Part shown: positions 38,799-61,694 of the stretch, in pieces
How positions within the stretch are numbered: the stretch's first letter is position 1
Layout of the letters: the number at the start of each line of letters is the position of its first letter
From: a virus
IMG/VR virus record: IMGVR_UViG_3300007539_000013
Coordinates: 15,742-79,741 of that record
Reading direction: 5' to 3' (one strand)
Length of the DNA stretch: 64,000 nt
The notes under the pieces: model-generated
The model's input: the letters and a program-made list of their open reading frames with translations, nothing else
Database searches by the model: none
What the model was told of the DNA's origin: nothing
Translations under genes and position numbers: made by a program

Positions 38799-38848
38799 TG
38801 GCACACCCGGCAGGAGTCGAACCTGCAACCTCCTGATCCGTAGTCAGG
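38799..38848 (-). other. attP core: 3' half of tRNA-Arg(ACG), not a complete tRNA
   Basis: CCTGA-CTACGGA-TCAGG anticodon arm, GCAGG-TTCGACT-CCTGC T arm, CGGGTGT-G-CCA end. No D arm or 5' acceptor strand upstream. Confidence 0.88.
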
Positions 38849-38859
38849 GCATGATCCTC

Positions 38860-39177
38860 TTATTTACTGGGACTTGGGCTGGTGTTGCCAATTTGTTGCC
38901 AGATTAACTGTATGGATTCCATTATTTCTTCGTCATGGAAATAAACCCATGTAGCCATGCCGACATTACAGATCAGGGAGATCACCAAAATTACGCCAAG
39001 GCATAAGACCAATGTCTTAATACTTTGAGCAATCCCTTCCACCTTTAATGCAAGGTCGTGAACATCATTTAACCGAGTGCCATCCACTCTTATTTCGCCA
39101 ATCTCACCATCCAGATCAGTAGACCACTCTTGGGTGTCGTGAAGAATTGTTATGTTCTGGGTGGAGGGGTTGTCCAT
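38860..39177 (-). CDS. Single-pass membrane protein (possible lysogen-expressed gene)
   Basis: LVLCLGVILVISLICNVGMATWVYF hydrophobic helix; between repressor-like gene and attP. Confidence 0.55.
   Translation of the reverse strand: MDNPSTQNITILHDTQEWSTDLDGEIGEIRVDGTRLNDVHDLALKVEGIAQSIKTLVLCLGVILVISLICNVGMATWVYFHDEEIMESIQLIWQQIGNTSPSPSK
38883..38901. other. Putative integrase arm-type sites (right pair)
   Basis: TGTTGCCA at 38883 and 38894. Confidence 0.6.
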
Positions 39178-39179
39178 TA

Positions 39180-39401
39180 TTATTTCCTTTCTATATCTGC
39201 CGCAAACTTATCAATCTGCAGAGCTTTTGTTGGTTTGTAGTCATCGCTATAAATCTGCTCCAAGTATTCCACGATTGCATCCATTATGAATGCAGACGCT
39301 GATTTTTTTGTAATCGCCAGGTGATTATTCATCTTCTCCGCTAGATCTAGCGGTATCCTGGTATTTATAGCATATAGGGTGTTATTTTTATTTTTTGTCA
39401 A
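39180..39401 (-). CDS. Ribbon-helix-helix DNA-binding protein, candidate repressor
   Basis: INTRIPLDLAEKM...SASAFIMDAIVEYL; divergent from the replication operon across an AT-rich gap. Confidence 0.7.
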   Translation of the reverse strand: MTKNKNNTLYAINTRIPLDLAEKMNNHLAITKKSASAFIMDAIVEYLEQIYSDDYKPTKALQIDKFAADIERK

Positions 39402-47934: not shown

Positions 47935-48291
47935 TTATTTTGTTAAATGGTTTTCCATTTTGTCGCGCAATCTGTCTAATTCTTTTTCAAGATACTTAAG
48001 TCGCTCAAATTGTTGATGGTCTGAAGTAATTGGCATATCTTGCATTTCCACTAGGTGATCTAGGTCGCTCTTGGCTTGCTCTGCAAATTTCTCGATATGC
48101 ATCATGCGAGCAGATAGATCACCGAGCATAGTTCCCTCGTGCTGCACTCGATCCAATCCATTATCAAGCGTAGTGAGCTTGTTCCAAATAACCGAGTAGC
48201 CCCAGACCGCCGTACCAACAATAGCAATGACCTTCGCCATAAAAGCGAGGTTTGCTTTGACCTGAGTGCTCTCCCCTACTTCAGCCGCCAT
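47935..48291 (-). CDS. Membrane-anchored coiled-coil protein
   Basis: One hydrophobic helix then heptads. Confidence 0.6.
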   Translation of the reverse strand: MAAEVGESTQVKANLAFMAKVIAIVGTAVWGYSVIWNKLTTLDNGLDRVQHEGTMLGDLSARMMHIEKFAEQAKSDLDHLVEMQDMPITSDHQQFERLKYLEKELDRLRDKMENHLTK

Positions 48292-48422
48292 TACTTTTTT
48301 TTAAGACGCAAACATTTCCCTGCTTTTCTGCATTTGGGTTTGTTTGGGCAAGTTGAGCAGGGTTTAAATGCAGCCTTTCTTGCGGGTTTCTTTTTTGCCA
48401 TTGGTTTTTTTCCGTATGCCAT
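48291..48422 (-). CDS. 43-aa basic Cys4 peptide
   Basis: MAYGKKPMAKKKPARKAAFKPCSTCPNKPKCRKAGKCLRLKKK; fills the gap exactly. Confidence 0.65.
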   Translation of the reverse strand: MAYGKKPMAKKKPARKAAFKPCSTCPNKPKCRKAGKCLRLKKK

Positions 48423-48424
48423 AA

Positions 48425-48664
48425 TTATGCCTTTTTTGTTCTGCGCCCCATGCCTACTTTCCTTTTTTCAGCAACAAGAGCTTTTTTCTTTTTGCCAACC
48501 TGTTTCCATGTCTTTGGCGTTTTCTTTGAAATTCTTTTACTGGGGCGACACTTCTTGACGCCCTTAGTTTTTTTATTACCGCAAGGACGGCCGTTTTGAT
48601 CTGTCCACTTTTCTTTAAACCAGCGTTTAAGATTAGCCCCAGCCTTACCTTTGCGAACTGCCAT
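48425..48664 (-). CDS. Small basic protein, DUF5872-like
   Basis: LKRWFKEKW...CG...CRPSKRISKKTPKT; ATG at 48664. Confidence 0.7.
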   Translation of the reverse strand: MAVRKGKAGANLKRWFKEKWTDQNGRPCGNKKTKGVKKCRPSKRISKKTPKTWKQVGKKKKALVAEKRKVGMGRRTKKA

Positions 48665-48665
48665 A

Positions 48666-48812
48666 TCACTTCTTTTTCCCAGCCCGCCGCTTACGGCATT
48701 TTGCAATAGCTCCACTTGCGTAGGCAGATGGGAATACCTTGTAGGAAGCTTTCACCTTATGGTAACAAGCATCCTTCTTAGACTTAGGTTTACTACTTTT
48801 GCGTTTTTTCAT
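48666..48812 (-). CDS. 48-aa basic protein
   Basis: KDACYHKVKASYKVFPSAYASGAIAKCRK. Confidence 0.65.
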   Translation of the reverse strand: MKKRKSSKPKSKKDACYHKVKASYKVFPSAYASGAIAKCRKRRAGKKK

Positions 48813-49014
48813 AAAGGTTCTGTATATCTTTTCTCCTATCCTCCACGACCTTTAGTAGTGTTCTTATACGCTCAGTATTCCTGGCGTCTGAAATTTCTAG
48901 CTTACGGATCACGCTTTTTAACGAATCTATTTCAGCCTTATTTTTCTTTAGGAAAAAACCCAGTACAGATATAGCAAGGGTAACCCCGGCAAACATATAA
49001 TGAGTGATCTCCAT
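48793..49014 (-). CDS. Small membrane-anchored coiled-coil protein
   Basis: N-terminal hydrophobic helix; motif copy abuts the ATG. Confidence 0.65.
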   Translation of the reverse strand: MEITHYMFAGVTLAISVLGFFLKKNKAEIDSLKSVIRKLEISDARNTERIRTLLKVVEDRRKDIQNLYEKTQK

Positions 49015-49038
49015 TGTTACACTTTAGTTCGTGTTACT
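49015..49038 (-). promoter_or_regulatory. 24-bp bipartite motif copy
   Basis: AGTAACACGAACTAAAGTGTAACA immediately followed by ATG. Confidence 0.75.
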
Positions 49039-49041
49039 TAA

Positions 49042-49281
49042 TCATGCAATATACTTTAATGCTTTTTGTTTCTTCTTTAAGTATGGCTGACCGTGGTACC
49101 ATTGCTTCCAATTTTCACAGACTAAATCCGCTTCCTCTTTTGTATCAAACTGAATTCCTATATCGGGAAGCTCTGTCCCCTTGGCTAGTCGTAGGCCGAT
49201 AGCACCTTCCCCCAGTAAGCCCTGGGATCGTATGATCCAGCCCCTGTCGCTCTTACGAACGACAAAAGTTAGGTCACTCAT
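49042..49281 (-). CDS. Hypothetical protein
   Basis: ATG at 49281 overlapping the upstream gene end. Confidence 0.55.
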   Translation of the reverse strand: MSDLTFVVRKSDRGWIIRSQGLLGEGAIGLRLAKGTELPDIGIQFDTKEEADLVCENWKQWYHGQPYLKKKQKALKYIA

Positions 49282-49447
49282 CCTGCTCTTTAAGAGCAAG
49301 CAACTGTTCCCTTTGTGCGATCAATTTTAATATCAATTCAGCCCGATCATTATCAAGACGCTCTTTCTTCGCCTCGATCATTTGAAGATCCTGCTTGATA
49401 TTACGCAACCGCACCTGAAGGATTTGTTCCTGCGATTCTTTTCTCAT
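49274..49447 (-). CDS. Small coiled-coil protein
   Basis: MRKESQEQILQVRL... Confidence 0.5.
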   Translation of the reverse strand: MRKESQEQILQVRLRNIKQDLQMIEAKKERLDNDRAELILKLIAQREQLLALKEQDE

Positions 49448-49652
49448 GTTCCGATATTTGGTTAATACACCAATTATAAGCCTGCTCCAGCTTACCCTCT
49501 TCAAAGCCTTGTGATGTTTGGTGAGAGTCCTCCGCGGTCATGTAATTAAAATGCGCCATCCAAAACGGATTGGGCAAATCCATCATTTCCAAGGTAGCAC
49601 TACAACCAGGGCGTTTGATCTCACCCCGAAACCTATCCCACTTAATTACCAT
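49401..49652 (-). CDS. Hypothetical protein
   Basis: 83 aa in the leftward operon. Confidence 0.5.
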   Translation of the reverse strand: MVIKWDRFRGEIKRPGCSATLEMMDLPNPFWMAHFNYMTAEDSHQTSQGFEEGKLEQAYNWCINQISEHEKRIAGTNPSGAVA

Positions 49653-49951
49653 CCGAAATTATCCCCCATGTTTTGCCTGCCCCAGCAGTGGTCTTTAACA
49701 AGTGCCTTGTATGGGGCATAGCAACCACACCCCATTTCTGACTCGGGAAATGGTCGACATGTTTTTCTTGATTTATCAAAAATGGGACATCTATAACAGA
49801 TATACATCCTAGATCTCCACATCTCCTCAGAGTATGGACTCCTTGAAATTTGAAAGGCTGCCTTTAGGATTTCAAGGTAATCCCGCCAAGAAACTTTCGG
49901 GCCGAAAGCTACTCTTAGGAACTCCTTAAATCTCCTAAATGAAATCATCAT
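49646..49951 (-). CDS. Cys-rich putative metal-binding protein
   Basis: R...CYRCP...C...GCGC...K...C pattern. Confidence 0.65.
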   Translation of the reverse strand: MMISFRRFKEFLRVAFGPKVSWRDYLEILKAAFQISRSPYSEEMWRSRMYICYRCPIFDKSRKTCRPFPESEMGCGCYAPYKALVKDHCWGRQNMGDNFGW

Positions 49952-50823
49952 GTAAGCATACTGGAAGCATTGCCGTACATATTGGCCAATGACTTTGCCT
50001 GTGGACTCGTGGGATCAGCTTCTGCATTTGCATTTAGTAATTCAAGAGCGATCTTATTTTGATCGTCACTTATTTGATCACTGTATCTAGGGGCTTGATT
50101 CATTTGATTTGGCATATACCCGGCAGGCTGACCTGTGAGGGGAACACCAAAATTTAAATTACCACCCCCTCTGTTTGGTTGAACATTTACCTGGTACGGG
50201 GTTACCTGACCGCCCGACACGCCTGCTCTACCTCCCCCGCCTGACCCAAGTGTGTTTCCGAGTACACCGAATAAATTCATGAGTGCAGGCATCTTACCTT
50301 TACCCATTCCAAAAAATCCACCATCGTTACCTGGCATTAATCCAGAACCAAACCCTCCTTCGGGTGGTGCAAGAACAGTTCCGTAACCAACTGGCTGAGA
50401 AGCGGCCGGGCCAAATAACCCACCTAAGTATCCCTGACTCGGGGTGATTGTTCCACCAACACCTAAATTGGGCAATAATCCACCAGCAAGTTTATCTGCA
50501 CCCGCATATAATCCACCAAGACCACCAAGCGCATTTGCTCCAGTTCCAATAATTCCACTACCAAGTGAACTTAATGCACCCGGAATATTTCCAGCACCTA
50601 ATGCAGTAAGACCTCCACCCAGTCCACTACCTAAACTACCAACCATACCACCAAGTGATGAACCAACTACGGGAATTGATCCCAAAGCCCCACCTAAAGC
50701 CCCCGCTCCAGAGGCTAACGCTCCACCAATTCCGCTTGCAGCGGCTCCAAGTCCGCTACCTATAGCTCCTACTGCGGGTAATACTGCTGATCCTATCGCG
50801 GGTAATGCAAATGCAAATGCCAT
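49948..50823 (-). CDS. Gly-rich putative virion/ejection protein
   Basis: Long G/A/L/S low-complexity N-terminal half. Confidence 0.65.
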   Translation of the reverse strand: MAFAFALPAIGSAVLPAVGAIGSGLGAAASGIGGALASGAGALGGALGSIPVVGSSLGGMVGSLGSGLGGGLTALGAGNIPGALSSLGSGIIGTGANALGGLGGLYAGADKLAGGLLPNLGVGGTITPSQGYLGGLFGPAASQPVGYGTVLAPPEGGFGSGLMPGNDGGFFGMGKGKMPALMNLFGVLGNTLGSGGGGRAGVSGGQVTPYQVNVQPNRGGGNLNFGVPLTGQPAGYMPNQMNQAPRYSDQISDDQNKIALELLNANAEADPTSPQAKSLANMYGNASSMLT

Positions 50824-51299
50824 TATTTTATCTCCTTTTCCTGTTTGAATTCAATTTCAGTAAAATCTTTTGCTATAACTTCCTCCTCAACCTCCTCAGG
50901 AGTAGTCTTATCTGTCGCATGGACGGTGTACCAAACACATTCCTCCAATACATGGATCAATCTTTTAGTACCAGGCTCAGTAATACCCATATAAGGAGCT
51001 ACTATTTCTACAACCCCCTCCTCAGTCATCACCTTACACCTACCCTTCAAAACAAAAAATGGGTGCCTGACCTTGTGAATCTTAGTAGTAACCACCATAT
51101 CCTTAGGCATTCTTACCATCCTCACATATAAACCATTGATAAATTGGTGAGTTAAGTCCCCATCCAATGCCTCAACCCAGTCATCACCCTTTATATGGTC
51201 AGGGTTTTCCATCCAATAATTCTCCAATCCCTGTATAGCCCTCCTCACATTACCATTTACAGCAATGTCAGACTCCAGTTTTTGGATTAAATCAACCAT
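50823..51299 (-). CDS. Cupin-fold phage protein
   Basis: HQFINGLYVR...KIHKVRH...PGTKR...WYTVH. Confidence 0.8.
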   Translation of the reverse strand: MVDLIQKLESDIAVNGNVRRAIQGLENYWMENPDHIKGDDWVEALDGDLTHQFINGLYVRMVRMPKDMVVTTKIHKVRHPFFVLKGRCKVMTEEGVVEIVAPYMGITEPGTKRLIHVLEECVWYTVHATDKTTPEEVEEEVIAKDFTEIEFKQEKEIK

Positions 51300-51306
51300 A
51301 CAACAT

Positions 51307-51343
51307 TGTTACTATATTATTATTGTAACCCATTTTAAGTCAA
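51307..51343 (-). promoter_or_regulatory. Motif copy (51307-51330) overlapping a sigma70-like promoter
   Basis: Minus strand TTGACT-N18-TAATAT overlaps GGTTACAATAATAATATAGTAACA. Confidence 0.55.
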
Positions 51344-51500
51344 GAAGCATATAAAACCCTACCTTTGTTCCTAAAAAGCCTTTCTACCACACTCTACGGG
51401 CGTTAGATCACTGTTTAAAAAGTCTCCAGATGCTGGAAACTTGAGAAAACAGGTATATACATATACGCACGGGAACGGCAAACCCCCCAAGCACCCCCCC

Positions 51501-51526
51501 TGTTACACTATTGTAGTATTGTAACA
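51501..51526. promoter_or_regulatory. Inverted TGTTACA/TGTAACA pair with 12-bp spacer
   Basis: TGTTACACTATTGTAGTATTGTAACA in the divergent intergenic region. Confidence 0.55.
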
Positions 51527-51650
51527 CCACACACACAAACCTCTGATTTGTAGTGGTTTACATAGGTGGCAAGTTTGCGTTTGTCCCGATCCTTGCCACG
51601 CTATCACCTCGCTATCATTGACGGACACAACCCATAGAAAAATAAATATC

Positions 51651-52256
51651 ATGACACTAGAAACAACCACCGCTAAAGACTTGGCTAAATTGACCAAGAC
51701 GAAACTAATCGAACGAGTATTGGAAGTTGAAACTGCACCACCTGCCAACCTTGCAGAGCAGTTTGCAGAAGCGAAGCAGATGCTTATCGACTCAGTAGAC
51801 GGAAACGCCTCACTTGTAGACAAGGAAGCACTTGCCGACCTTACTGCTGACTTTTCACGCCAAGCATGGAAAGAGGTAAACAATGCCCTTGCTACACTTG
51901 GAAAGATTGCAGACTTCAATCCTCACAAGATTGCCATGATCGACACGAACGGAAGACCACTTGGAAAGATTGCAAACTTCTGCCGTGAACTATTCGAGAA
52001 TGGATTGGACGATCAAATGGAAATTGACAGAGGGAAACAATGCCAGTTTTCAGCCAAGGAGAAATCCTTAGCTAAAGACTTCTGCCAATTAGTGAGAGGA
52101 GTTCTGAACTATTGGCAAAATACCTTGCCAGAGGTCAGAACCCAATGGGAAGAAGCCACTCGCGCACGTGGTGCGAAAACCGAGAGTGTGAAAGCACTTA
52201 GCAAGATCACCTCGACCAATGTCCGCACCACTATCGAAGTTGCCAAGGAAGATTAA
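51651..52256 (+). CDS. Hypothetical helical protein, first gene of the rightward block
   Basis: ATG at 51651 after an A-rich leader; internal repeat CACTTGGAAAGATTGCA (LGKIA twice). Confidence 0.7.
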   Translation: MTLETTTAKDLAKLTKTKLIERVLEVETAPPANLAEQFAEAKQMLIDSVDGNASLVDKEALADLTADFSRQAWKEVNNALATLGKIADFNPHKIAMIDTNGRPLGKIANFCRELFENGLDDQMEIDRGKQCQFSAKEKSLAKDFCQLVRGVLNYWQNTLPEVRTQWEEATRARGAKTESVKALSKITSTNVRTTIEVAKED

Positions 52257-52291
52257 TCCCTTGGAACTGAACCAACAATCAAAACGCCTTC

Positions 52292-52360
52292 GCCCTAGCA
52301 ATAGGGCAAGGCAAACCAAGGCAAATTCGATTGAGTTTGCCTTGGTTTGCTTTGCTTTAC
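52292..52360 (+). terminator. GCAA-tetraloop hairpin plus 23-bp hairpin, terminator-like
   Basis: 52306-52328 pairs with 52333-52355; the only two non-canonical pairs are G-U on the plus strand. Confidence 0.7.
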
Positions 52361-52599
52361 GTTGCAAACGCAATTTCCATAGATTGGATAAATTCCAAGT
52401 TGCCAACTTGCAGGAGAATCCTGCCGAGATATATAAGTTGAACGCTTGGAATTTGCCACCTTGCCAAGTTACTTGGAACTCTTGCGAGAGTTGCCATTTG
52501 CTTGGAAGCACAAGGTAACAGATCGTTAAATCAGGAATTTAAAACCGAACTTGGGTAAGTACTTTACCCTAGTTTATTTGTAGTCTTTTTTTATTTGAT

Positions 52600-53938
52600 A
52601 CAAATTTACCTGGAGTGCGTGGCATAGTTAGAAATTTTTAAAAAATTTCGCTATCACTATCACGCGCAACCGCCTAGTTGCGGTGCAGGTCAGTTTTTAT
52701 TTCGACCATAATTTGCTTTGGGTTATGTAGCCTGAGGTCATGTATATATCGTGTAGCATTTTGATGCGCGGCATTATCGGTGCCGTTGCTCGCTAGTGTG
52801 ATCCAGCCTTGTTGATCACCTACACATCTTACATACACTCTGTACAGCGTAGCGGGTAGCAGAAGTACCTATTGATGTGCTGTTGTTCATCATTAAGTGT
52901 TGTGCCTGTACGAGTCAGCTCCTTGGTGGGTGTATGTTGTCACTGATGTGCAGTACCAATGTATTTAGGACATTGGAGAATTCTATGTGTGAGATATGTA
53001 CGTATATGACGGATGAATGGAGCCGATGCCTGTATTCAATTACACATTGTCAAATTATGAGTAGCGTTTGATCACATACTGAACGAAGTAGCCATAGAGG
53101 TGAAGGAGGGTGCAAGTCCCCGTCAGACGCTTTATAAAACATACAAGGGAGCCAGGATCATGGCTAAGATCATGACCACCTAACGGAACGCAAACTTGTA
53201 TGCCTCTTCTCCGAGCATTTATCAACGGAGGCAATGGGTGAGGTAACCGGCTACTGCTGTGTCCTGTTTTGACACATAAAGGTCACAAGTGGTTATGGTG
53301 AGATAACTCGTTGAGAAAGGAGCGGTGGTACGGAGCCACCAGTCATGTGTACATTTGTCATGTATGTGCAGGTGACTTAATGCAATTAGGTAGGGCAAGA
53401 CCTGTCTCATCACTGCAGGAATTGTCTAGGCTGAAACCTATGACTATCCATAAGGACAACGAACTAGGCTTACGGGCTGAATGAATGATGTTCGTCTCAG
53501 ATATATCTGACCCAGCTACACTTATGTGTACAGGTATATTGGTGTGTATGTACTCTTATGGATGATTGTCTGTAATAGTAGGTGATGTTGTTTCGTCCAC
53601 GGGGAGCGTTATGCCCCCGTCGCACCCCGCAAAGCGATGGATGAGTTCATCGTGGGTGCAGTCACCTGCACTACACTATGTAGTGTGGGTGACCCATTTC
53701 ACATCCAATAACCTCAACAAGGAGGAATCATGTAAACGCAAGTACAGTTAGGGGGTTGGGTGCCCCCGCCTTTGATATGCAAAACTGCATGAAGAAAGCA
53801 GTGCCTGATGACAACAGGCTAGTGCAGAGTCAGAATGGGCTTAGTCAGCCTTAACAAACCATATCAAACGGAAGGGTGTCTGCTCCGTAGCTCAATTAGA
53901 TGAGGGTTCGCCCTTCGACTCGAAAGAGCAACAGGCAC
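52600..53938 (+). ncRNA. Candidate large structured non-coding RNA (family not identified; 5' end uncertain)
   Basis: No credible ORF; more than 20 hairpins and several long-range helices with plus-strand G-U pairs; GNRA/UUCG loops; terminator at the 3' end. Confidence 0.7.
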
Positions 53939-53977
53939 AGGGGCATCGGTTTTCGTGACCGATGCCCTTTTCTTTTT
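53939..53977 (+). terminator. Intrinsic terminator
   Basis: GGGCATCGGT-loop-ACCGATGCCC followed by TTTTCTTTTT. Confidence 0.9.
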
Positions 53978-54023
53978 ACTAGCGAAAGCTATCACAACAA
54001 CAACAACCAACAAAAGGTATACA

Positions 54024-54191
54024 ATGAGCAACAAAACTAAGTCTCAAACTAAAGGTGCATTCGGCGGCGGTCGTCGAACAAACAGCATAAAGTTAATCCA
54101 AATTGGCTACAATCCGGCTACACCTGCTATGCGGGCTGCTAAATACAAGATTAAGTCAATGAAGGCGCAAGGCTTCCGGAAGAAAGGGTAA
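54024..54191 (+). CDS. Small basic hypothetical protein
   Basis: ATG at 54024 with AAGG upstream. Confidence 0.5.
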   Translation: MSNKTKSQTKGAFGGGRRTNSIKLIQIGYNPATPAMRAAKYKIKSMKAQGFRKKG

Positions 54192-54194
54192 GTC

Positions 54195-54410
54195 ATGCTT
54201 ATTAAAATCAATAACACTTGGGTTAATCCCAGGTATGTCACTGCAATTAAGGAGCTACCCAGAAGCAGTGACCTCACAAACGAAGCAGGCATAAAGTATA
54301 TGTCTGAAGTATGGGTAGTAGGTAATGCAGGCTACAATACATTCAATGTGTATAGTTGTATGCCCGCCAAGGAAATAGCTATTAAGCTAAACGAACTCAC
54401 TGATGAGTAG
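54195..54410 (+). CDS. Hypothetical protein
   Basis: MLIKINNTWVNPRYVTAI; resembles the 45981 peptide (INP..V). Confidence 0.6.
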   Translation: MLIKINNTWVNPRYVTAIKELPRSSDLTNEAGIKYMSEVWVVGNAGYNTFNVYSCMPAKEIAIKLNELTDE

Positions 54411-54606
54411 AACAAGGCGCGGTAAGCGTGCCAATAAAGCTTACAACAAAGCTCAGTCCTTAATCCATGGCGATACTGAGCATCGTAAACTGATACCCGT
54501 GCAGTGCGGTAAGTGCTGGGTGTATCAAACTGAAAAGTCCCACGAGCCACCTAAGTTCATTGACCTGAACTCTCCTCACAGGAAGGGGTACGCAAGTGGG
54601 TGCTAA
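54403..54606 (+). CDS. Hypothetical protein
   Basis: 67 aa, overlapping operon arrangement. Confidence 0.45.
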   Translation: MSRTRRGKRANKAYNKAQSLIHGDTEHRKLIPVQCGKCWVYQTEKSHEPPKFIDLNSPHRKGYASGC

Positions 54607-54859
54607 TCTAACGGAGAGGGAGAAATTCCTCTGCGCATTCGTAATAAACAACAGGGGCTGGAGACCCCAAGCTATGAGTAAATCAAAAGCTAAGAAACGC
54701 ATGGCACTCGCAGTTGAGCGTCGTGTAAATAAACAACGCAAACCACGCAAGGTTCAGCCTTGCATAGAGGTGGAGGTCAGAGGTAACAGACGCACTAAAG
54801 CGTTTGGTACTTCACTTGGTATGGCAATCGCAGAAGCTAGGAGGAATAAAAATGCCTGA
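54596..54859 (+). CDS. Basic hypothetical protein
   Basis: 87 aa, overlapping operon arrangement. Confidence 0.45.
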   Translation: MGANLTEREKFLCAFVINNRGWRPQAMSKSKAKKRMALAVERRVNKQRKPRKVQPCIEVEVRGNRRTKAFGTSLGMAIAEARRNKNA

Positions 54860-55493
54860 AGCAGTAGTAGCAGCAACATACACAGGTGCGCTCGCCGATG
54901 AGGTAAGCAGAAGGGAGTGGTTCCTTAAGCATGCCCGTGGCTTGTATCACTATGACTCAACTCTCGATCCATATACTAACATCTTTATGGATGAGGGTGC
55001 TAAACTAATAATGACCGGTATTGCTGAAGCTGTACTCAATGGTGCAGGTTGGGGATCAGATGATCCACCCAATGGTAAAGGTCGTGGCTTGCCATGGGAT
55101 CATACCGATAGTCTGTTTACTACATTCCAAATATGGCATGCTCACCGTGAGTGGTGCGAGGACACGGGTTCGTACAAGTCTATACCTAACAAGATCGTAT
55201 ACTACCTAACTCGTGATGATCGTTATGATTTTGCGTTCCAACGGTATGTACTTCGTCGTGAGGTGGAACTGAAGGAAGCTGTTGAGCGATGGGATTATGT
55301 CCGTCATAATGAGCCCACGCATAAATGGTATCCATACCCTGGTGTAAACAAGGAGATGACTAAGAAGTTTATGATGCTTTATGACTATCGTAAGTATACA
55401 TCTGAGTTGCCCGAGGATGAGCGGATGGGGTATGTATTCTCCATGAATGGTGGACTCTTACATGATGACAAAGGATGGAGGACATGCACATGA
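54852..55493 (+). CDS. Hypothetical protein
   Basis: ATG at 54852 with AGGAGG SD. Confidence 0.65.
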   Translation: MPEAVVAATYTGALADEVSRREWFLKHARGLYHYDSTLDPYTNIFMDEGAKLIMTGIAEAVLNGAGWGSDDPPNGKGRGLPWDHTDSLFTTFQIWHAHREWCEDTGSYKSIPNKIVYYLTRDDRYDFAFQRYVLRREVELKEAVERWDYVRHNEPTHKWYPYPGVNKEMTKKFMMLYDYRKYTSELPEDERMGYVFSMNGGLLHDDKGWRTCT

Positions 55494-55654
55494 GTAGATT
55501 CAATGTAAATATCAAGCTGAAGGCTGATGAGTACAAACAACTCAAGGACTCAGGCAAGATTGTGCAGATGCATACCGTTGTAGATACAAATACCCAGCAG
55601 GTATCAGTTGTATGGGTAAATATAACTGGCCCAAACAGAAAGCCTAAGTCATGA
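55490..55654 (+). CDS. 54-aa hypothetical protein
   Basis: ATGA overlaps at both ends. Confidence 0.55.
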   Translation: MSRFNVNIKLKADEYKQLKDSGKIVQMHTVVDTNTQQVSVVWVNITGPNRKPKS

Positions 55655-56511
55655 GTGAGCTATACTACGCATGGAATCGTAAGGGTCAGCCAATCGCAAA
55701 GGTAGGTGATGACTTTCTGCGTCCGATCGCAGAAAAACTATCACTCGTCAATGACTACATCTTTGGTGACAAGTCATACTTTGTGGATGCACCAAGTGTT
55801 CCTACTGACTTCTGCAATGTGGTTGAGTGTGTTGAGCCTAAGCCGATCTGGATGCCTCGTATGGAGTCCTGCCCCATCCTTCCAATTGATGAGATCATGA
55901 GCATGCTCAGGTATCCCGTTGGTTCAGTTAATTCACCGCTTAATCCACAAACATATGTGGAGGGCAAGCTCGATGAAATGAGGTGCTACATGGTTGTATG
56001 GAATGATCGGGTCAGGAGTACATTCACTGATAAACGAGGTGGGTATATCGGTTATGACCTCGGTCTATTCACATCAGACAAGTACCCCAACCTGAAAGGT
56101 AAAGCAGTTATTCATGACATCGTTGCCAAGTGGGCATATTGCCACCGCAAGGCATGGCTGGAGCAGGACAACTTTCTGCCTTGGCTACACCTTGAGTCTA
56201 AGAATGGAGGCTTGACGCCATATGATGAGGTGTTCGTCAACAAGAGGGTGAAACTACCCTCTAAGACCGGAGGAGCCGAATGGGATGATTACCATAATAA
56301 TGTATATAAGGCAGTTGCTCGAGCAACCGCATGGGATCATGACGAGGACTGGCATCGCTGTGCGTACCCACCGTGTGAATTCAAGTGGTACGAGGGTATT
56401 GTAATGAAGCATAAGTTTCACCACTACAGAGTTCACTACATTAAACCACATGAGGTAGGTAAAGCACAGACCATAAATGTGGGTGAGTGGGAGAAGCTGA
56501 GGTGGGATTAA
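55651..56511 (+). CDS. ATP-dependent ligase-like nucleotidyltransferase domain, divergent
   Basis: EGKLDEMR (motif I), VIHDI (IIIa), YEGIVMK (IV), WEKLR (V); ends without an OB domain. Confidence 0.65.
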   Translation: MSELYYAWNRKGQPIAKVGDDFLRPIAEKLSLVNDYIFGDKSYFVDAPSVPTDFCNVVECVEPKPIWMPRMESCPILPIDEIMSMLRYPVGSVNSPLNPQTYVEGKLDEMRCYMVVWNDRVRSTFTDKRGGYIGYDLGLFTSDKYPNLKGKAVIHDIVAKWAYCHRKAWLEQDNFLPWLHLESKNGGLTPYDEVFVNKRVKLPSKTGGAEWDDYHNNVYKAVARATAWDHDEDWHRCAYPPCEFKWYEGIVMKHKFHHYRVHYIKPHEVGKAQTINVGEWEKLRWD

Positions 56512-56523
56512 TTGTGTTACAAA

Positions 56524-56547
56524 TGTAACACGAAATAATAAGTAACG
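56524..56547 (+). promoter_or_regulatory. 24-bp bipartite motif copy
   Basis: TGTAACACGAAATAATAAGTAACG followed by AAAGGAGG and ATG 56560; an extra TGTTACA at 56515. Confidence 0.75.
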
Positions 56548-56559
56548 AAAGGAGGCACT

Positions 56560-56928
56560 ATGCCTGATAATATGGATCCCTATTCGGTGGGGGATATAAA
56601 TACACACATCGATCACATGGTTAAGGACGCTATGCGTCCCGTTGAACCACCAGTACTAAACCCTATTGATCGTTTAGATCTACCTGCATTCATCCGCAAG
56701 GATGAACGGGTAAACATAGCTCAGATCAATGGGGTACTGAACCTGGCACAAAGCCGTAATGAACTGCCCACATTTATTGAGGTGCAGAATATTAACGGGT
56801 CTCATGTCATCCGTGTCGAGTTTGGCACAGATGTACGAATCGTAACCAAAAGTCCAACGGGATACCACATAGAACACCCGGTAGACTTCGAACTAATAGG
56901 AAGGAAAATCAATGACAATAGAATATGA
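56560..56928 (+). CDS. Hypothetical protein
   Basis: Strong SD. Confidence 0.65.
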   Translation: MPDNMDPYSVGDINTHIDHMVKDAMRPVEPPVLNPIDRLDLPAFIRKDERVNIAQINGVLNLAQSRNELPTFIEVQNINGSHVIRVEFGTDVRIVTKSPTGYHIEHPVDFELIGRKINDNRI

Positions 56929-57493
56929 AGACCCAAACAAGGGTAACATCTACACGCTCAATGACCATGGGTCAGGCAATATGACCTGCACTGTAAATAT
57001 GAGCAATCGTAAGGTTGTGCCTTGGCCAACCGAGTATGCCAACCTTGGTAAGCAACTGGAAGAGTTCGTTCCGCATCTTCAATGTATGGCTCTAGCTGAA
57101 GAAATATTCAGGGGTGAGGAAGCCAAGGAGATTGCTCGTACTTATGAGAAGTTGGCTAGTTACTGGACGGAGATGCCTGATGCACCAACGGATGATCCAA
57201 ATGCTGATAAAGTATGGCTCAAGTTCTTTAATACAACTGGGGCAGGCTATTGGTATATGATGACAAAACCCAATAGGGCAACCGGAGATCATGCCTATGG
57301 GTATTGTGTGATCTTTGAAGACTGTGGTGAGTATGGCTCATTTGTCTTCAATGACCCACGCTACCCCAAGGATGACATCATGCAAGTATGCCCGATGCTT
57401 AATGTGGATACATGGTTTGAGCCTGTGTTGTACACAGATTTCAAGGCGCAGTTACTCATGGATAAGATCCCAGAGGACAATGAACTGGGCTAA
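56912..57493 (+). CDS. DUF2958-like protein
   Basis: LKFF..G..YWYM...AYG...GEYGSF...VDTWFEP. Confidence 0.6.
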   Translation: MTIEYEDPNKGNIYTLNDHGSGNMTCTVNMSNRKVVPWPTEYANLGKQLEEFVPHLQCMALAEEIFRGEEAKEIARTYEKLASYWTEMPDAPTDDPNADKVWLKFFNTTGAGYWYMMTKPNRATGDHAYGYCVIFEDCGEYGSFVFNDPRYPKDDIMQVCPMLNVDTWFEPVLYTDFKAQLLMDKIPEDNELG

Positions 57494-58187
57494 ATGGAGG
57501 CTTGAGTCACCAGATAAAATCATAGGAAGTAAGGCGCAAGCCACATATCGGGGAGTAGCACAACAGCTCTCCGAAATGAAAGACCTCGTAGGCACAGAGT
57601 CTACGGGGTCTTTTGCTTTCAGTGGTGATCCTGGTGTGGGTAAAACATCTATTGCCATGATGCTTGCCAATGGTTGGGTGGATGATCCGTTCAATCTAAG
57701 GCACGGCCCTGAGTTCTCGGGGCGCAGTATCAAGGAGGCAACCCTGTCTACCTTAATTGACGAGTGTAGGTATGCACCACTCATAGGTAAATGCCGTGCC
57801 CTTGTCATCAATGAGGTGGACAAGATGCAACGCCACTTACAGGAGATGCTACTCGATTGGATCGAGGACTATCTGCCTGATCACTTTGTGGTCTTCGTGA
57901 CTACGAACAAGAACCTAGAGGCAAAGGTGGTGGTGGACAAGCTAAGTAAGTCAGAGCGAGAGGAGTACCTTGAGCCTAGATTTGCTGAGCGGTTCATGCC
58001 CTACCACATAACCAACCCTACCAATGAGGAGATGGCTAGTTCCATTGAATCGTTGACGGGTGTACCGACCCAAATTGCGCAACATGCCGCGCGCAATGCA
58101 CAAGGTTCGGTGCGGTCTGCACTGAAGCAGGTCGCAAAATGGAAAGCGGCAGTAAACTCAAAGAAGGAGGCTAAGTTATGCCAATAA
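57480..58187 (+). CDS. AAA+ ATPase of the clamp-loader clade
   Basis: KWR..SPDKIIG, GDPGVGKTS, VINEVDKM, VTTN, RFAERF, GSVRSAL; likely ATG at 57480. Confidence 0.85.
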   Translation: MNWAKWRLESPDKIIGSKAQATYRGVAQQLSEMKDLVGTESTGSFAFSGDPGVGKTSIAMMLANGWVDDPFNLRHGPEFSGRSIKEATLSTLIDECRYAPLIGKCRALVINEVDKMQRHLQEMLLDWIEDYLPDHFVVFVTTNKNLEAKVVVDKLSKSEREEYLEPRFAERFMPYHITNPTNEEMASSIESLTGVPTQIAQHAARNAQGSVRSALKQVAKWKAAVNSKKEAKLCQ

Positions 58188-58864
58188 ATACTAAACAGGA
58201 GTTCATGGAATGGTACTCCAAAAATGTTAAACCAGATACATCAAAGAAGAATGCCTTCAAGGGTATGGTCACCACCGTATCCCCTGAATCAGCAGCAAAC
58301 TTTGCTACATTCTTCACTAATGATAAAATTGTGCCGGACATCAAAGGTGAGACGAAGGATGAAACGAGGTTCCGTCTCATCAATGAGTGGAAGGATAAGC
58401 TCGATCTCATGGATCACTCAGCACCTGTGGCTACCGAGGAAGTTCGTGGTGACATTACTGACATCGCTGACATGCCTGAGACGGAGGTAGTGGACGACAT
58501 ACCAGTCAAACCTAAGGTTGTGGATGTGGAGCTATCCGCTGAGCGTGAAGCCGAGGACATTGCATCTGCTGTGGAGAACAGGCAAGAGCAAGCGTCTGAT
58601 CCAGCAGACTACCTTGGGCCTCATGCTCAATCAGAGCCTCAACTATCACCACCGCCCGCCACCACATCTGATGTGCTTACTCAGCTGGGAACTGCATTGA
58701 GTGCCTTCATTGCTTCAACGGACTCCCCGCCAGAGGACACGGCAGATGGAGCTAGTAAGGATGCAATCCTTAAGCTTGGTAAGATCGTTGCAGAACAAGG
58801 CAAGACCATTGAGAAGCTCGAAAAGAAAGTGAAGAGCTTATTCAACGCATTGAGGGATGAGTAA
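58178..58864 (+). CDS. Hypothetical protein with acidic linker and C-terminal coiled coil
   Basis: AAGGAGG SD; TAATG-coupled to PRTRC protein E. Confidence 0.65.
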   Translation: MPINTKQEFMEWYSKNVKPDTSKKNAFKGMVTTVSPESAANFATFFTNDKIVPDIKGETKDETRFRLINEWKDKLDLMDHSAPVATEEVRGDITDIADMPETEVVDDIPVKPKVVDVELSAEREAEDIASAVENRQEQASDPADYLGPHAQSEPQLSPPPATTSDVLTQLGTALSAFIASTDSPPEDTADGASKDAILKLGKIVAEQGKTIEKLEKKVKSLFNALRDE

Positions 58865-59367
58865 TGAGCGTCACTAAACAGATTGGTGAACTCTGTGGTG
58901 CAGGGTTCACTGTAAATGTGGTGTACTCACCATCTCAGGAGGAGGGTAAGATCAATGCTACCTTTCTCCTGTCTGGTGACAAGCACCTGGAAAGCGAACA
59001 CGATGAGGTTGTAAAGCTTCTCAAGAAGCCTATACAGATTCCACCATCAACCCCAGAGGAGCTTGAGCAAGTTGTGCTTGCTGAGCTAGAGCCTGTGGTT
59101 GAGGAGCGTGTGCCTATCTCAAACTCAATCAAGGAGGAGTACGATAAGATACAGGCAACCAAAAAGAAGACACCTGCCAAAAGGACTCCTGCTAAGAAGA
59201 CTACTGCGGTCAAGAAGAAGACAAAGGCACAGGAGGCAAAGGAGCAAGCCCGTGCGAAAGCAGAGCAAGCAACTGCCGACCTGCCCTTGTTTCAGTCTGA
59301 TCGTAGTGCCAAGGCAAAGGAGAAAGACCCAACACCTACTGAGGAGGAGGAGGTAATCGAGCTATGA
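58864..59367 (+). CDS. PRTRC system protein E
   Basis: KPIQIPPSTPEELE (PLxLxGTPxELD-like), K/A-rich tail with LPLF; cassette context. Confidence 0.7.
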   Translation: MSVTKQIGELCGAGFTVNVVYSPSQEEGKINATFLLSGDKHLESEHDEVVKLLKKPIQIPPSTPEELEQVVLAELEPVVEERVPISNSIKEEYDKIQATKKKTPAKRTPAKKTTAVKKKTKAQEAKEQARAKAEQATADLPLFQSDRSAKAKEKDPTPTEEEEVIEL

Positions 59368-59564
59368 GTAAGGTACTTCCAAGAGTGTTCGTACTATCTG
59401 GTAAGGAGCCACTACCTGACCCAGCACCTTCATTATCCGTGGAGGAGGTCAGAGGCTTGCTTGCTAAAACCTATCCGGAACTAACCAATGCGAAATTCAC
59501 AGAAAAAATTGAAGATGAAAAAATCGTCATCAGGTTTGAAGCGAGTTACGGTACCAAAGGCTAA
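59364..59564 (+). CDS. PRTRC system protein C (prokaryotic ubiquitin-like)
   Basis: RVF...LPDPAPSLSVEEVR...YPELTNA...GTKG-stop. Confidence 0.92.
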   Translation: MSKVLPRVFVLSGKEPLPDPAPSLSVEEVRGLLAKTYPELTNAKFTEKIEDEKIVIRFEASYGTKG

Positions 59565-59573
59565 GGAGCTACT

Positions 59574-60467
59574 ATGGTTGAAATATTGCTCGGCCCTGAA
59601 ACACAGGCTCGAAAATGTCAAAGGAGGGAGGCTTCCTTCTCATTTGCTACCTCCTCGGCTCTAGCCCCACCAGCGACATGTCCAACAATTATATTGAATG
59701 GACTTTCGTACATGGCTGTAGCCAAGGAAACGGAGGCTGATGAAGAGCTATCCACTCTGTTCTCAGAATCTGGCTTCAATCTGATTGCTGGCATTATGGA
59801 CGGGGGTTGCTACATAGACTCTCACAGTAAGTTCACCTCTTATGCTATTGGTGCAAGGGTGGATCTACTGGAGCGTAGATGCGGTGCAGGTTGGTACTTG
59901 CTTCAACTACTAGATGACTGCCCCATACCTATATGGGATCCAAGATTCTTGTATGACCATGCCAAGCACATGTTTAACCTTGATTTCCATAAGTGTACAT
60001 CAGAGTGGCTATGGGAAAAACCAACCCAAGATTGGGACAGGAAGTTCCCCGCCTGCAAGAGTAGACTACCCAAAAAGCTACGCAAGCTATGTACTGATGT
60101 GGAGGAAGCTAGTGCAGACCCAAGGATGCACGAGCTATGGCTAGGTGCCAACTCGGAGTACCCGGACAATGAATGTGCCCAAATCCCTGCGATCGTGCTG
60201 TCGTGGTGGGATAATGTTCATTGGTATAATGGTCAGTGCAGAAAGAACCCATCGTTCACAATAGAGCATGGGACTAACCCTGTGTTCGCAATAATGGACT
60301 CATATGCAGAAAGCACACTGCAGACAGGAGCAACTCACATGGGATCACCAATCTACCATGACCTTGATGATGTAAGGACAATCGTAGAGCTGGCGAAACC
60401 ATACGCAAAATTAATTGATTACTTATCGCACGATGAAGAAGAATGTGGATTCAACTGTATCTTTTGA
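59574..60467 (+). CDS. Probable PRTRC system protein F
   Basis: Position between C and B; LERRCGAGWYLLQLL...IWDP segment. Confidence 0.5.
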   Translation: MVEILLGPETQARKCQRREASFSFATSSALAPPATCPTIILNGLSYMAVAKETEADEELSTLFSESGFNLIAGIMDGGCYIDSHSKFTSYAIGARVDLLERRCGAGWYLLQLLDDCPIPIWDPRFLYDHAKHMFNLDFHKCTSEWLWEKPTQDWDRKFPACKSRLPKKLRKLCTDVEEASADPRMHELWLGANSEYPDNECAQIPAIVLSWWDNVHWYNGQCRKNPSFTIEHGTNPVFAIMDSYAESTLQTGATHMGSPIYHDLDDVRTIVELAKPYAKLIDYLSHDEEECGFNCIF

Positions 60468-61017
60468 GGGCAGTGTAACAAGTGCTTTGATGTTCTTTAA
60501 GGTAGGCAGTCAAGATGTCGCCTTGATGATGAAGTGGTGTGATGAGCAAGGGTGGCACTCACCTAAGCCTATCGACCATGATGAGATGGTGGCTATTGCT
60601 AACTCAACATCAAAGAACACTGAGTTCCTTCCCGACCGCATGCTGACATACAACAGCGAGATAAATTTCTCCTGGTGGGTGCCCGCAAAGCGAAGGAAGA
60701 TCAATGTAAAGAAATCAACGCGTAAAGAATTCTACTATCCAGCCATGGTCTTTCATGTGCTGTGCGGAATGCTTTATGTTGGTTGTCTTAAAAACAATAG
60801 AAGACCAACCCCTGAAACCGAGACATACAGTATATTCGGCAAAATGGATGTTCACCAAACAAGAGCAGCCTTCTGTCAAACTCGTAAACCTGAAGGAGTG
60901 GGGGTAAGCACGATCCCTCAATGGGAGGATGCCTTCTATAAATCAACCTATAACAAGCTACCTAACCTAAAGGAGTGGAAGCCAAATGGAACTGTGGGGT
61001 CGATATGCACAAAGTAA
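60433..61017 (+). CDS. PRTRC system protein B (prokaryotic E2 family D)
   Basis: WWVPAKRR, YPAMVF, RPTPET, FC, WEDAFYKS. Confidence 0.85.
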   Translation: MKKNVDSTVSFEGSVTSALMFFKVGSQDVALMMKWCDEQGWHSPKPIDHDEMVAIANSTSKNTEFLPDRMLTYNSEINFSWWVPAKRRKINVKKSTRKEFYYPAMVFHVLCGMLYVGCLKNNRRPTPETETYSIFGKMDVHQTRAAFCQTRKPEGVGVSTIPQWEDAFYKSTYNKLPNLKEWKPNGTVGSICTK

Positions 61018-61694
61018 ATAGATTCCCTAGCTCTGTTCATATCTCAGTCATAGGCTGTGGAGGTACGGGTTCCCATGTGGTCAATCAGTTGGTCGATGTG
61101 CATACTGCTATCACAACACTTGGTCATCCTGGTCTAACAGTCCAGGCATACGATGGCGATGCTGTCGCTTTTAGTAATGTTGGTAGGCAAGCATTCTACC
61201 AACAGGATGTAGGTAGGCCAAAGGCTCAAGTGCTAATTGAAAGGATCAATATGTACTACGGGTTGAATTGGCGCGCCCACAACCACCTAGCTAACGGTGT
61301 TGGAGTTAGTGCTGATATTCTTATATCATGCGTTGACACCAAAGCGTCAAGACGCCTCATCAAAGGAGCCCCTAAGACCAAAAAGACATACATCATTGAG
61401 TGTGGTAATGCCCGAGCTTCGGGGCAGGTAATACTAGGTCAGGAAAAGGGTGACCTACCAAACCCATATCGTGAACACCCTGGTCTCACGAAGGGTAAGG
61501 AACCGAAGGGCGAGGGATGCCTCGACCCATATTATAAACAAGACTTGGCGGTCAACAGGGTGGTCGCTACATACGTACAACAAATCGTTTGGGACTTATT
61601 GCGTAAGCATGAGATCGGATACCGAGGGGTATTCTTCGATCTCACAAAGTTTACAAGCAATGGTATCCAAGTAAATAGAAAGGAGGGTGCATGA
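61005..61694 (+). CDS. PRTRC ThiF-family E1-like enzyme
   Basis: VIGCGGTGS, DGD.V..SNVGRQ.F...DVG..KA, SCVD...R, ECGN...GQVILG, EGC...QDLAVN; alternative GTG start at 60975. Confidence 0.93.
   Translation: MHKVNRFPSSVHISVIGCGGTGSHVVNQLVDVHTAITTLGHPGLTVQAYDGDAVAFSNVGRQAFYQQDVGRPKAQVLIERINMYYGLNWRAHNHLANGVGVSADILISCVDTKASRRLIKGAPKTKKTYIIECGNARASGQVILGQEKGDLPNPYREHPGLTKGKEPKGEGCLDPYYKQDLAVNRVVATYVQQIVWDLLRKHEIGYRGVFFDLTKFTSNGIQVNRKEGA

Follow-up and report, generated by a model that had tools for sequence, protein, structure and literature searches.

A probable new large structured RNA gene in the gene-free stretch of an uncultured coastal phage

What fills the one long stretch without genes in the genome of an uncultured coastal phage? 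The window analysed here, 64,000 nucleotides (nt) long, comprises bases 15742-79741 of a 79.7-kb IMG/VR virus record (IMGVR_UViG_3300007539_000013) and contains terminase, portal, tail-fibre and DnaB-type genes. Its leftward structural genes stop at position 51299 and rightward genes start at 51618. Between the gene at 51618-52256 and a 55-codon gene starting at 54024 lies a region (52257-54023) that has no credible or conserved open reading frame (ORF). A preliminary description, made from the sequence alone, had pointed to 52600-53977 as the only long coding gap and as a candidate for a giant non-coding RNA (ncRNA). The gap is wider than was stated there and it is indeed the sole ORF-free gap of at least 500 nt in the window, barring artefacts of ORFs that run off the window ends. 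Here, we describe the analysis of this region and conclude, with high confidence, that 52647-53857 is a new large structured RNA gene. The proposal of a new large ncRNA is supported by covariation among homologues, by the lack of an Rfam match and of conserved ORFs, and by contigs from RNA libraries.

Conservation, coding capacity and fold

A blastn search (distant mode) with the stretch against 50,697 phage records gave no match. Homologous metagenomic and viral contigs were reached via a 229-amino-acid (aa) neighbour protein, whose homologues P0002 and P0003 are encoded on Logan and ENA contigs, and via a 23-nt core pattern. The pattern of the T-loop core matched no GTDB genome contig and, in viral contigs, L002's record only; a pattern from the tail of the RNA matched only G028, a contig of a sister phage. 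After collapsing of contigs, four lineages were left: the window itself, L010/L012 (~90% identical to the window), L002/L011 (~76%) and L005/L008/L009 (~75%). Over 52647-53857 the identity across the four lineages is 72-94%, with ~72% in the 5′ half and 85-89% in the 3′ half (53312-53859). Compared with L005, the sole neighbouring segment that is better conserved than the 3′ half is 54651-54854 (94%). No additional copies of the RNA were found when up to 43 related phage records were searched by blastn, by nhmmer and with the covariance model R1.

This conservation is not that of a protein gene. Indels are frequent and of lengths not divisible by three, and each codon phase takes a similar share of the substitutions (73/74/76 against L002, 73/66/83 against L005). 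None of the eight small ORFs (27-64 aa) that were checked across the lineages is intact in all of them; each is broken by stops or frameshifts in at least one. Conserved small ORFs, which would have spoken against an RNA, are thus not present, and 52647-53857 is non-coding.

What is conserved instead is a fold. RNAalifold on the four lineages gave 295 consensus pairs, with 98.6% of the cells paired. Fifteen of these pairs (22 cells) changed on both sides in a compensatory manner, as opposed to 0-2 pairs in controls in which the partners were slid by 1-3 columns, and the covariation score was reached by none of 500 shuffles. The expectation that homologues would covary was therefore borne out. 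The expectation that the region folds better than shuffled sequence held to a lesser degree: the whole unit folds at −451 kcal/mol on the + strand, compared with −416 ± 10 kcal/mol for dinucleotide shuffles (z −3.4), a modest difference, and the local z within the RNA unit is strong only at 53500-53800. It is covariation, not thermodynamics, that supports the structure. The region encodes a structured ncRNA with a conserved fold.

The long-range helices proposed earlier fared differently. The helix 52707-52715/53051-53059 holds in all four lineages and can be extended to 11 bp (52705-52715/53051-53062). Here, CCATAATTTGC/CAAATTATGG is replaced by CCACAGATCGC/GCGATCTGTGG, that is, 4 of 11 pairs are compensatory in a helix that joins positions ~350 nt apart. 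The helices 52786-52795/52850-52859, 53063-53071/53123-53131 and 53140-53147/53195-53202 as well as the hairpin 53661-53693, which has 15 bp, are kept and are either invariant or changed solely through G-U. Seven of nine pairs are kept in 53446-53454/53555-53563. The helix 53771-53779/53860-53868, with only 3-7 of 9 pairs, is not conserved, and 52737-52750/52993-53010 is absent from the consensus fold, in which TGAC at 53007-53010 pairs with 52914-52917 instead, with one compensatory pair. In the lineage-specific tail, 6 of 7 pairs of 53876-53882/53932-53938 are kept in G028, as read by eye.

The imperfect pairs, mostly G-U on the + strand, had been taken to indicate RNA rather than DNA structure. 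G-U accounts for 17.6% of the paired cells, and the fold read on the − strand keeps just 81% of the cells paired. The alifold energy is also lower on the + strand (−270.9 versus −211.3 kcal/mol); part of this difference is compositional, because the + strand is rich in G and U (344 G versus 276 C, 371 T versus 340 A), and in single-sequence folding the lower energy of the + strand is largely so. The G-U changes in conserved helices agree with the + strand. The 15-bp hairpin 53661-53693 swaps C-G/U-G for U-G/C-G, and this exchange works on + strand RNA only. The + strand is thus favoured.

The transcription unit and its parts

The features of the region are compiled in Table 1. At the site of the upstream terminator the hairpin sequence differs in every lineage of a five-lineage alignment and a T-rich run follows each time, as expected for a covarying terminator. 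This terminator would close the preceding unit and isolate the RNA gene. Conservation between the lineages begins abruptly at ~52647, at the box GCTATCACTATCAC. The box GCTATCAC is found at 51600-51607 in front of gene 51618, at 52650-52657 at the start of the RNA, at 53988-53995 in front of gene 54024 and also at 61107; it is doubled at 51596-51617 and 52650-52663, and in relatives it is kept in front of both the RNA and the 55-aa gene. It may be the −10 or start box of this phage group, and a promoter consisting of TTAGAA, an 18-nt spacer and TATCAC can be inferred. At the other end, the strong terminator noted before was confirmed by the terminator scan, and terminator-like hairpins of other sequence, again with T-runs, occur at the equivalent place in the other lineages. 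The RNA is thus a separate unit. The 55-aa gene that follows is conserved in L005, L008, L009 and L012. Early expression is suggested only by the position of the RNA before the first of the small rightward genes.

Table 1 Features of the RNA unit and contigs from RNA libraries that cover it. Positions refer to the window.
Feature	Position	Strand	Basis	Length and detail
Predicted upstream intrinsic terminator	52553-52569	+	Terminator scan and five-lineage alignment	Hairpin and T-rich tail
Candidate promoter/start region	52628-52663	+	Alignment	TTAGAA, 18-nt A/T-rich spacer, conserved box GCTATCACTATCAC
Conserved ncRNA body	52647-53857	+	blastn and alignment to L002, L005, L010/L012 and L011	~1.21 kb, four lineages
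5′ domain	52705-53062	+	Alignment, RNAalifold	~350 nt, closed by long-range helix 52705-52715/53051-53062
Candidate pseudoknot	52831-52937	+	Alignment	Loop 52831-52840 with 52928-52937
tRNA-cloverleaf-like four-way junction	53063-53131	+	Consensus helices 13-16	
Variable hairpin domain	53140-53202	+	Alignment	8-bp closing helix
Lineage-specific insertion (expansion segment)	53231-53311	+	Alignment	~80 nt
Highly conserved 3′ half	53312-53780	+	Alignment	85-89% identity
Shine-Dalgarno with start and stop codon	53719-53735	+	Read from sequence	AAGGAGG, 4-nt spacer, AUG-UAA
3′ module	53785-53852	+	Alignment	Stem 53785-53790/53822-53827 around hairpin 53803-53819, then hairpin 53836-53852
Lineage-mosaic tail	53858-53938	+	Alignments	UUCG (53907) and GAAA (53922) loops
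Intrinsic terminator ending the unit	53939-53977	+	Terminator scan	13-bp stem (53939-53969) and T-run
Next unit	53988-54191	+	ORF list	GCTATCAC box, then gene 54024-54191 (55 aa), with which the rightward block of small genes begins
X5 contig	52711-53581			871 nt, 100% identical
X16 contigs	52710-53227 and 53198-53583			509 nt and 386 nt
X18 contig	52810-53646			837 nt
X19 contig	52695-53611			923 nt, depth 24.8; other pieces 2-5

The 5′ domain belongs to the less conserved half and holds most of the compensatory changes; apart from its closing helix, helices 5, 10, 11 and 12 covary. The candidate pseudoknot within this domain keeps 9-10 of its 10 pairs in all lineages, one of them compensatory, and competes with a local hairpin (52929-52954) that has about equal support. 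The 5′ domain is followed by the tRNA-like junction, in which a closing stem of 10 bp leads to two short arms and to an element that resembles a T-arm, GGAGGG-UGCAAGU-CCCC. The sole position that varies in the junction among the lineages is in the T-loop (53113, C to U in L002), hence no covariation is seen there. The adjoining hairpin domain is 63 nt long in the window and 84 nt in L002 and L005; its interior is rebuilt by indels and its closing helix is kept, with one G-U change. The expansion segment is found in the window, L010 and L012 only and is precisely missing in L002, L005, L009 and L011.

The 3′ half contains a hairpin with a UACG tetraloop (53467-53478), the covarying hairpin 53599-53620 (hairpin 36) and the 15-bp hairpin mentioned above. 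In hairpin 36 two pairs are compensatory, G-C being replaced by A-U or U-G and C-G by U-A (GCG/CGC to GUG/CAC). Further downstream, a perfect Shine-Dalgarno sequence is followed by a start codon and at once by a stop codon. This arrangement is kept in all four lineages; L002 has AAGGAGG-CUAA-AUG-UAG, with a different spacer and stop, and the Shine-Dalgarno sequence is partly paired with CCUC at 53712-53715. The element could serve as a "start-stop" site for docking of ribosomes. A search for palindromic loops as signs of kissing-loop oligomers gave ambiguous cases only: GAUC or GUAC at 53155-53160 and CCGCGG in the insert of L002 and L005. Sequence of the tail is common to the window and G028; L002, L005 and L010 have other sequence there.

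The 3′ module (~70 nt) is also found in the sister contigs G028 and L115, which do not have the large RNA. Over six sequences, 4 of its 15 pairs covary; the inner hairpin is GCCUG/CAGGC or GCUGA/UCAGC, and one A-U is flipped to U-A. The covariance model R1 matched only G028, L115's record and L002's record. In G028 and L115 the module is the only portion of the RNA within a leader of ~380 nt, and the upstream part of this "type-B" leader had no similarity to the 5′ end or the middle of the RNA above that of shuffled controls. The large RNA thus seems to be an addition to, or a neighbour of, a small structured module that is older, and the module itself may act in cis.

Is the RNA made? Twenty public runs hold part of the stretch and six of them are metatranscriptomes (aquatic, marine and salt-marsh, from up to five studies). 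Four runs (X5, X16, X18 and X19, from at least three studies) were mapped as contigs on 12 kb (48000-60000), and in all four the longest contigs fall on the RNA, within 52695-53646. Mapping of metatranscriptomes, as had been proposed, therefore revealed contiguous contigs of 0.84-0.92 kb in RNA libraries of independent studies, and the RNA is present in such libraries. X5, X16 and X19 have no contig over 53614-54014 and X16 has little outside the RNA; the uncovered parts carry no weight. Contig ends recur at 52710/52711 and at 53581/53583 in two studies. This is a weak hint at a processed species of ~870 nt; strain variants, 53576/53577 for example, could also have broken the assembly at these ends.

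Between the gene 51618-52256 and the upstream terminator lies a non-coding region (52256-52520) that is dense in palindromes and motifs (TTGCCA/TGGCAA, CTTGGAA/TTCCAAG); a hairpin at 52306-52355 has arms of 23 nt, and arms of 20 nt are present at 52390-52454. On both strands the region is much more stably folded than shuffled sequence (z about −8), and the cumulative GC-skew has its minimum at 51600-52400. The region is a candidate for an operator array or an origin.

Distribution of the RNA and neighbouring genes

The terminase links the window to 80 loci of related uncultured phages (65-92% identity). Four complete relatives (72-81 kb, TerL 68-79% identical) do not have the RNA, as judged by blastn, nhmmer and the covariance model, nor a gap comparable to that of the window. 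ORF-free gaps were found among these four in G002 only (717 and 934 nt), and these gaps had no nhmmer match and no Rfam match at the gathering score. The distribution of the RNA is narrow.

Other things are found at the same place in relatives. According to synteny, the equivalent locus of G001 holds ORFan genes and a Pistol ribozyme. The latter (RF02679; L095:19131-19205 on the − strand, corresponding to G001 39131-39205) scores 45.9 bits at a gathering score of 34.5, is co-oriented with the genes and overlaps the end of a 243-codon ORF. In G028 and L115 three ORFs (191, 124 and 135 aa) occupy the equivalent locus, together with a tRNA and the leader of ~380 nt. The tRNA gene of G028 (L112:3824-3896, + strand, 74 bits) is located between the tail-fibre module and the rightward genes. 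There is no nhmmer similarity between the RNA and the ORFs of the sister phages. A locus that holds ORFans, a tRNA or Pistol in relatives argues against a role of the RNA in the core phage machinery; it appears to be a clade-restricted accessory element at a hypervariable locus.

The distribution of the RNA is also that of several ORFan genes nearby. One of them (55651-56511) encodes a 286-aa ORFan protein with only five clusters among 1.8 billion representatives, which is present in all lineages that have the RNA and absent from the four complete relatives that lack it. Its AlphaFold model (pLDDT 66, pTM 0.72) matched only ligase/capping nucleotidyltransferase domains and the related cap-binding domain of snurportin. 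The matches, among them an ATP-dependent DNA ligase and an mRNA capping enzyme, are weak but consistent (Z 6-7, ~145 residues aligned). K106, L107, D108 and R111 are invariant, giving KxDxxR instead of KxDGxR, and an OB domain is lacking. A link of this protein to the RNA is suggested by their co-occurrence only. For the proteins flanking the RNA, PHROGs, Pfam and NCBIfam gave nothing. The rightward block downstream also encodes an AAA+ ATPase (57315-58184; Pfam AAA, 2e-7) and a ThiF/E1-like protein (60975-61691; Pfam ThiF, 4e-15).

Possible function of the RNA

We read 52647-53857 as a stand-alone gene on the + strand for a multi-domain ncRNA of ~1.2-1.3 kb that acts in trans, and we think it probable, though far from certain, that the RNA forms a stable particle which serves as a scaffold or decoy in the conflict between phage and host. 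Transcription would probably start at the GCTATCAC (TATCAC) box and end at the RNA's own terminator. The RNA would be made during infection as a stable folded particle acting in trans, and the particle would be used as scaffold or decoy in the manner proposed for GOLLD and ROOL. What leads us to this reading is the size of the RNA and its fold, which is rich in domains and has a near-invariant T-loop junction, together with terminators of its own, an apparent abundance in RNA libraries and the pattern of gain and loss. We do not take the RNA for a leader or an intron, nor for an origin or a coding region.

Several points weigh against this reading. No result bears directly on trans action or on a role as scaffold or decoy. 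One and the same alignment served to derive the consensus fold and to score it. Only four closely related lineages contribute to it; because of this many helices are invariant, among them those of the entire tRNA-like junction, and there is hardly any variation in most of the 3′ half. The single-sequence signal is equal on both strands, the − strand having a z of −3.6 against its own shuffles. The promoter is weak, and the sigma-70 scan made no call at 52628-52663. In sister phages the 3′ module is located before the same downstream gene, as would fit a role of the module in cis. The RNA evidence consists of Logan contigs, which carry no information on strand, true ends or depth profile, the runs had been selected because they contain part of the stretch, and in X5 the depth over the flanking genes is similar to that over the RNA, so DNA carry-over or general infection is possible there.

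How, then, do other explanations compare? The RNA could be a giant cis-acting leader, i.e. the 5′ untranslated region of the rightward early operon, in which folding or a bound ligand or protein gates passage of the terminator at 53939-53977 into gene 54024 and onward. Like riboswitches, T-boxes and attenuators, it shares its strand with the genes that follow, here the block of small genes, lies immediately upstream of them and has a terminator at its end; such a terminator-like hairpin stands between RNA and gene in every lineage, and sister contigs without the large RNA have the 3′ module in front of the homologous first gene. However, with 1.1-1.3 kb the RNA exceeds any bacterial leader known to us and is several-fold longer than the long leaders just named, it matches no leader family such as the riboswitches or T-boxes in Rfam, and the terminator in the window, with its 13 bp and T-run, is strong. 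The GCTATCAC box between terminator and gene 54024, which resembles the box at the start of the RNA, suggests a separate promoter for the gene. Furthermore, the RNA contigs stop short of the genes, a weak point. Altogether we regard a leader as unlikely. A precursor that is cut into smaller stable RNAs (the 5′ domain, the tRNA-like piece, RNAs of the 3′ half and the 70-nt module), each with its own role, has about the same low probability. The evolution of the RNA is modular, for hairpins and the 80-nt segment come and go, the 3′ module occurs alone elsewhere and the tail is a mosaic; the contig ends that recur in two studies, the self-cleaving Pistol ribozyme at the equivalent locus of a relative and the tRNA-like junction, which could attract RNase P or Z, would also agree with processing. 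Yet one covarying helix joins positions that are 350 nt apart, the tRNA-like junction and several domains are spanned without a break by RNA contigs of 837-923 nt, and no self-cleaving ribozyme matched in the stretch at E ≤ 10. An array of small RNAs, which the preliminary description had offered as its second option, is weakened by the same helix and contigs and is conceivable mainly for the 70-nt 3′ module.

An RNA associated with an adjoining replication origin, as R-loop or primer, has precedents in RNA II of ColE1 and in the transcripts of oriF and oriG in T4. The palindrome-rich region just upstream folds strongly on both strands and the minimum of the cumulative GC-skew is close by. This minimum falls, however, where gene orientation switches (51300-51600), and no origin is needed to account for it; the palindromic region and the RNA are kept apart by a terminator, a primer would not need an elaborate, conserved, tertiary-style structure with G-U covariation, and complete relatives replicate without the RNA. 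We consider this explanation very unlikely. Even less credible is that there is no RNA gene at all and that the region consists of decayed protein genes, or is a DNA element whose structure arose by chance and from G+T-rich composition. The modest single-sequence z, equal on both strands, and the two ORFs (124 and 135 aa) that sister contigs have at the equivalent locus would be in line with it. It is largely refuted by the 15 compensatory pairs compared with 0-2 in the controls, by indels out of frame and the absence of codon periodicity, by a conservation of the 3′ half that only one neighbouring segment surpasses in the comparison with L005, by the lack of nhmmer similarity to the sister ORFs and by the long contigs in RNA libraries. 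A group I or group II intron or a mobile element with GCTATCAC at both ends was considered and rejected: there are no exons, no intron family of Rfam matched at E ≤ 10, and the box is also present at 51600. The RNA unit is flanked by a terminator and a promoter-like box rather than by exons.

If the RNA acts in trans as a particle, it is tempting to combine its features, although the combination as a whole is improbable. It would be the largest "ornate" phage RNA seen so far (~1.2 kb) and would assemble into a stable particle of RNA only or of RNA and protein; the tRNA-like junction and the Shine-Dalgarno-AUG-stop element would capture host enzymes that bind tRNA, or ribosomes; and the RNA would be processed to ~870 nt (52711-53581), with its ends possibly modified or joined by the nucleotidyltransferase-like protein encoded at 55651-56511.

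To our knowledge, large intricately folded ncRNAs outside the ribosome are rare, and few are borne by phages. The RNA described here combines support from covariation, evidence from environmental RNA and clear gain and loss at an accessory locus, and this makes it a fresh target for structural biology. Sister phages that have ORFan proteins, a tRNA or Pistol at the same locus offer a natural comparison for its function. At present its value is limited by the narrow set of homologues.

Comparison with known RNAs

A cmscan against Rfam had been proposed as a check, and it found no family for this RNA. With the 4227 models of Rfam 15 at gathering scores, the whole window gave only a tRNA elsewhere; at E ≤ 10, 52200-54100 gave only chance matches of the microRNA type, which are due to the palindromic region 52256-52520, and other sub-threshold chance matches (sRNA, snoRNA, ctRNA), and the copy in L002 gave no match. 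Self-cleaving ribozymes (Pistol, hammerhead, twister and others) were not found in 52200-54100 at E ≤ 10; the same scan method does detect Pistol in the relative G001. ARAGORN and Rfam found no tRNA or tmRNA in 52600-53977, and full-text searches of the literature found no description of such an RNA.

The junction at 53063-53131 recalls a tRNA in being a four-way junction with a 5-bp arm and a 7-nt loop, UGCAAGU. This loop shares U54, C56, the purine at 57, A58 and U60 with the T-loop pattern of tRNAs. In contrast to a tRNA, the closing stem has 10 bp, the "anticodon" arm has 3 bp and a 5-nt loop, GG is missing from the D-like loop and there is no CCA end, the junction being internal. It resembles a tRNA without being a member of the family.

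The sole tRNA call in the window, and hence the nearest to the RNA, is more than 13 kb away; G028, as mentioned, has a tRNA at the equivalent locus. This call, a tRNA-Arg(ACG) at 38799-38874, is low (30 bits) and seems to combine a 3′ half that is good and has CCA with a 5′ half that is degenerate. No exact match to the 45-nt 3′ half turned up in 185,579 species genomes, and the adjacent 334-aa ORF (37666-38670) had no Pfam integrase match at E ≤ 0.001.

The RNA is about twice the size of ROOL. GOLLD and ROOL are large phage-borne RNAs that form RNA-only nanocages of unknown purpose; GOLLD, with a size "exceeding 800 nucleotides", is often near tRNAs or contains them, and ROOL has multiple pseudoknots and domains, no known protein partner and an unknown function (PMC12286853). 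Rfam includes profiles for GOLLD, ROOL and OLE (PMC12286853), and the covariance models of GOLLD and ROOL had no match at E ≤ 10 in 52200-54100 or in the L002 copy. With GOLLD, the RNA has in common that both are very large ncRNAs of phages or prophages with an elaborate, covarying secondary structure and tRNA-related features, here the embedded tRNA-like junction. It differs from GOLLD in being longer (~1.2 kb), in having no Rfam match, in being confined to one sub-clade of uncultured coastal phages and in having no tRNA island beside it in the window. Like ROOL, it is borne by a phage or prophage, large, composed of several domains and encoded as a stand-alone transcription unit; unlike ROOL, it has no Rfam match and comes from another habitat. 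Apparently, the RNA is unrelated to GOLLD and ROOL in sequence and represents a new class among the large ornate phage RNAs. If this is true, an unrelated and larger class would mean that phages invent such RNAs repeatedly.

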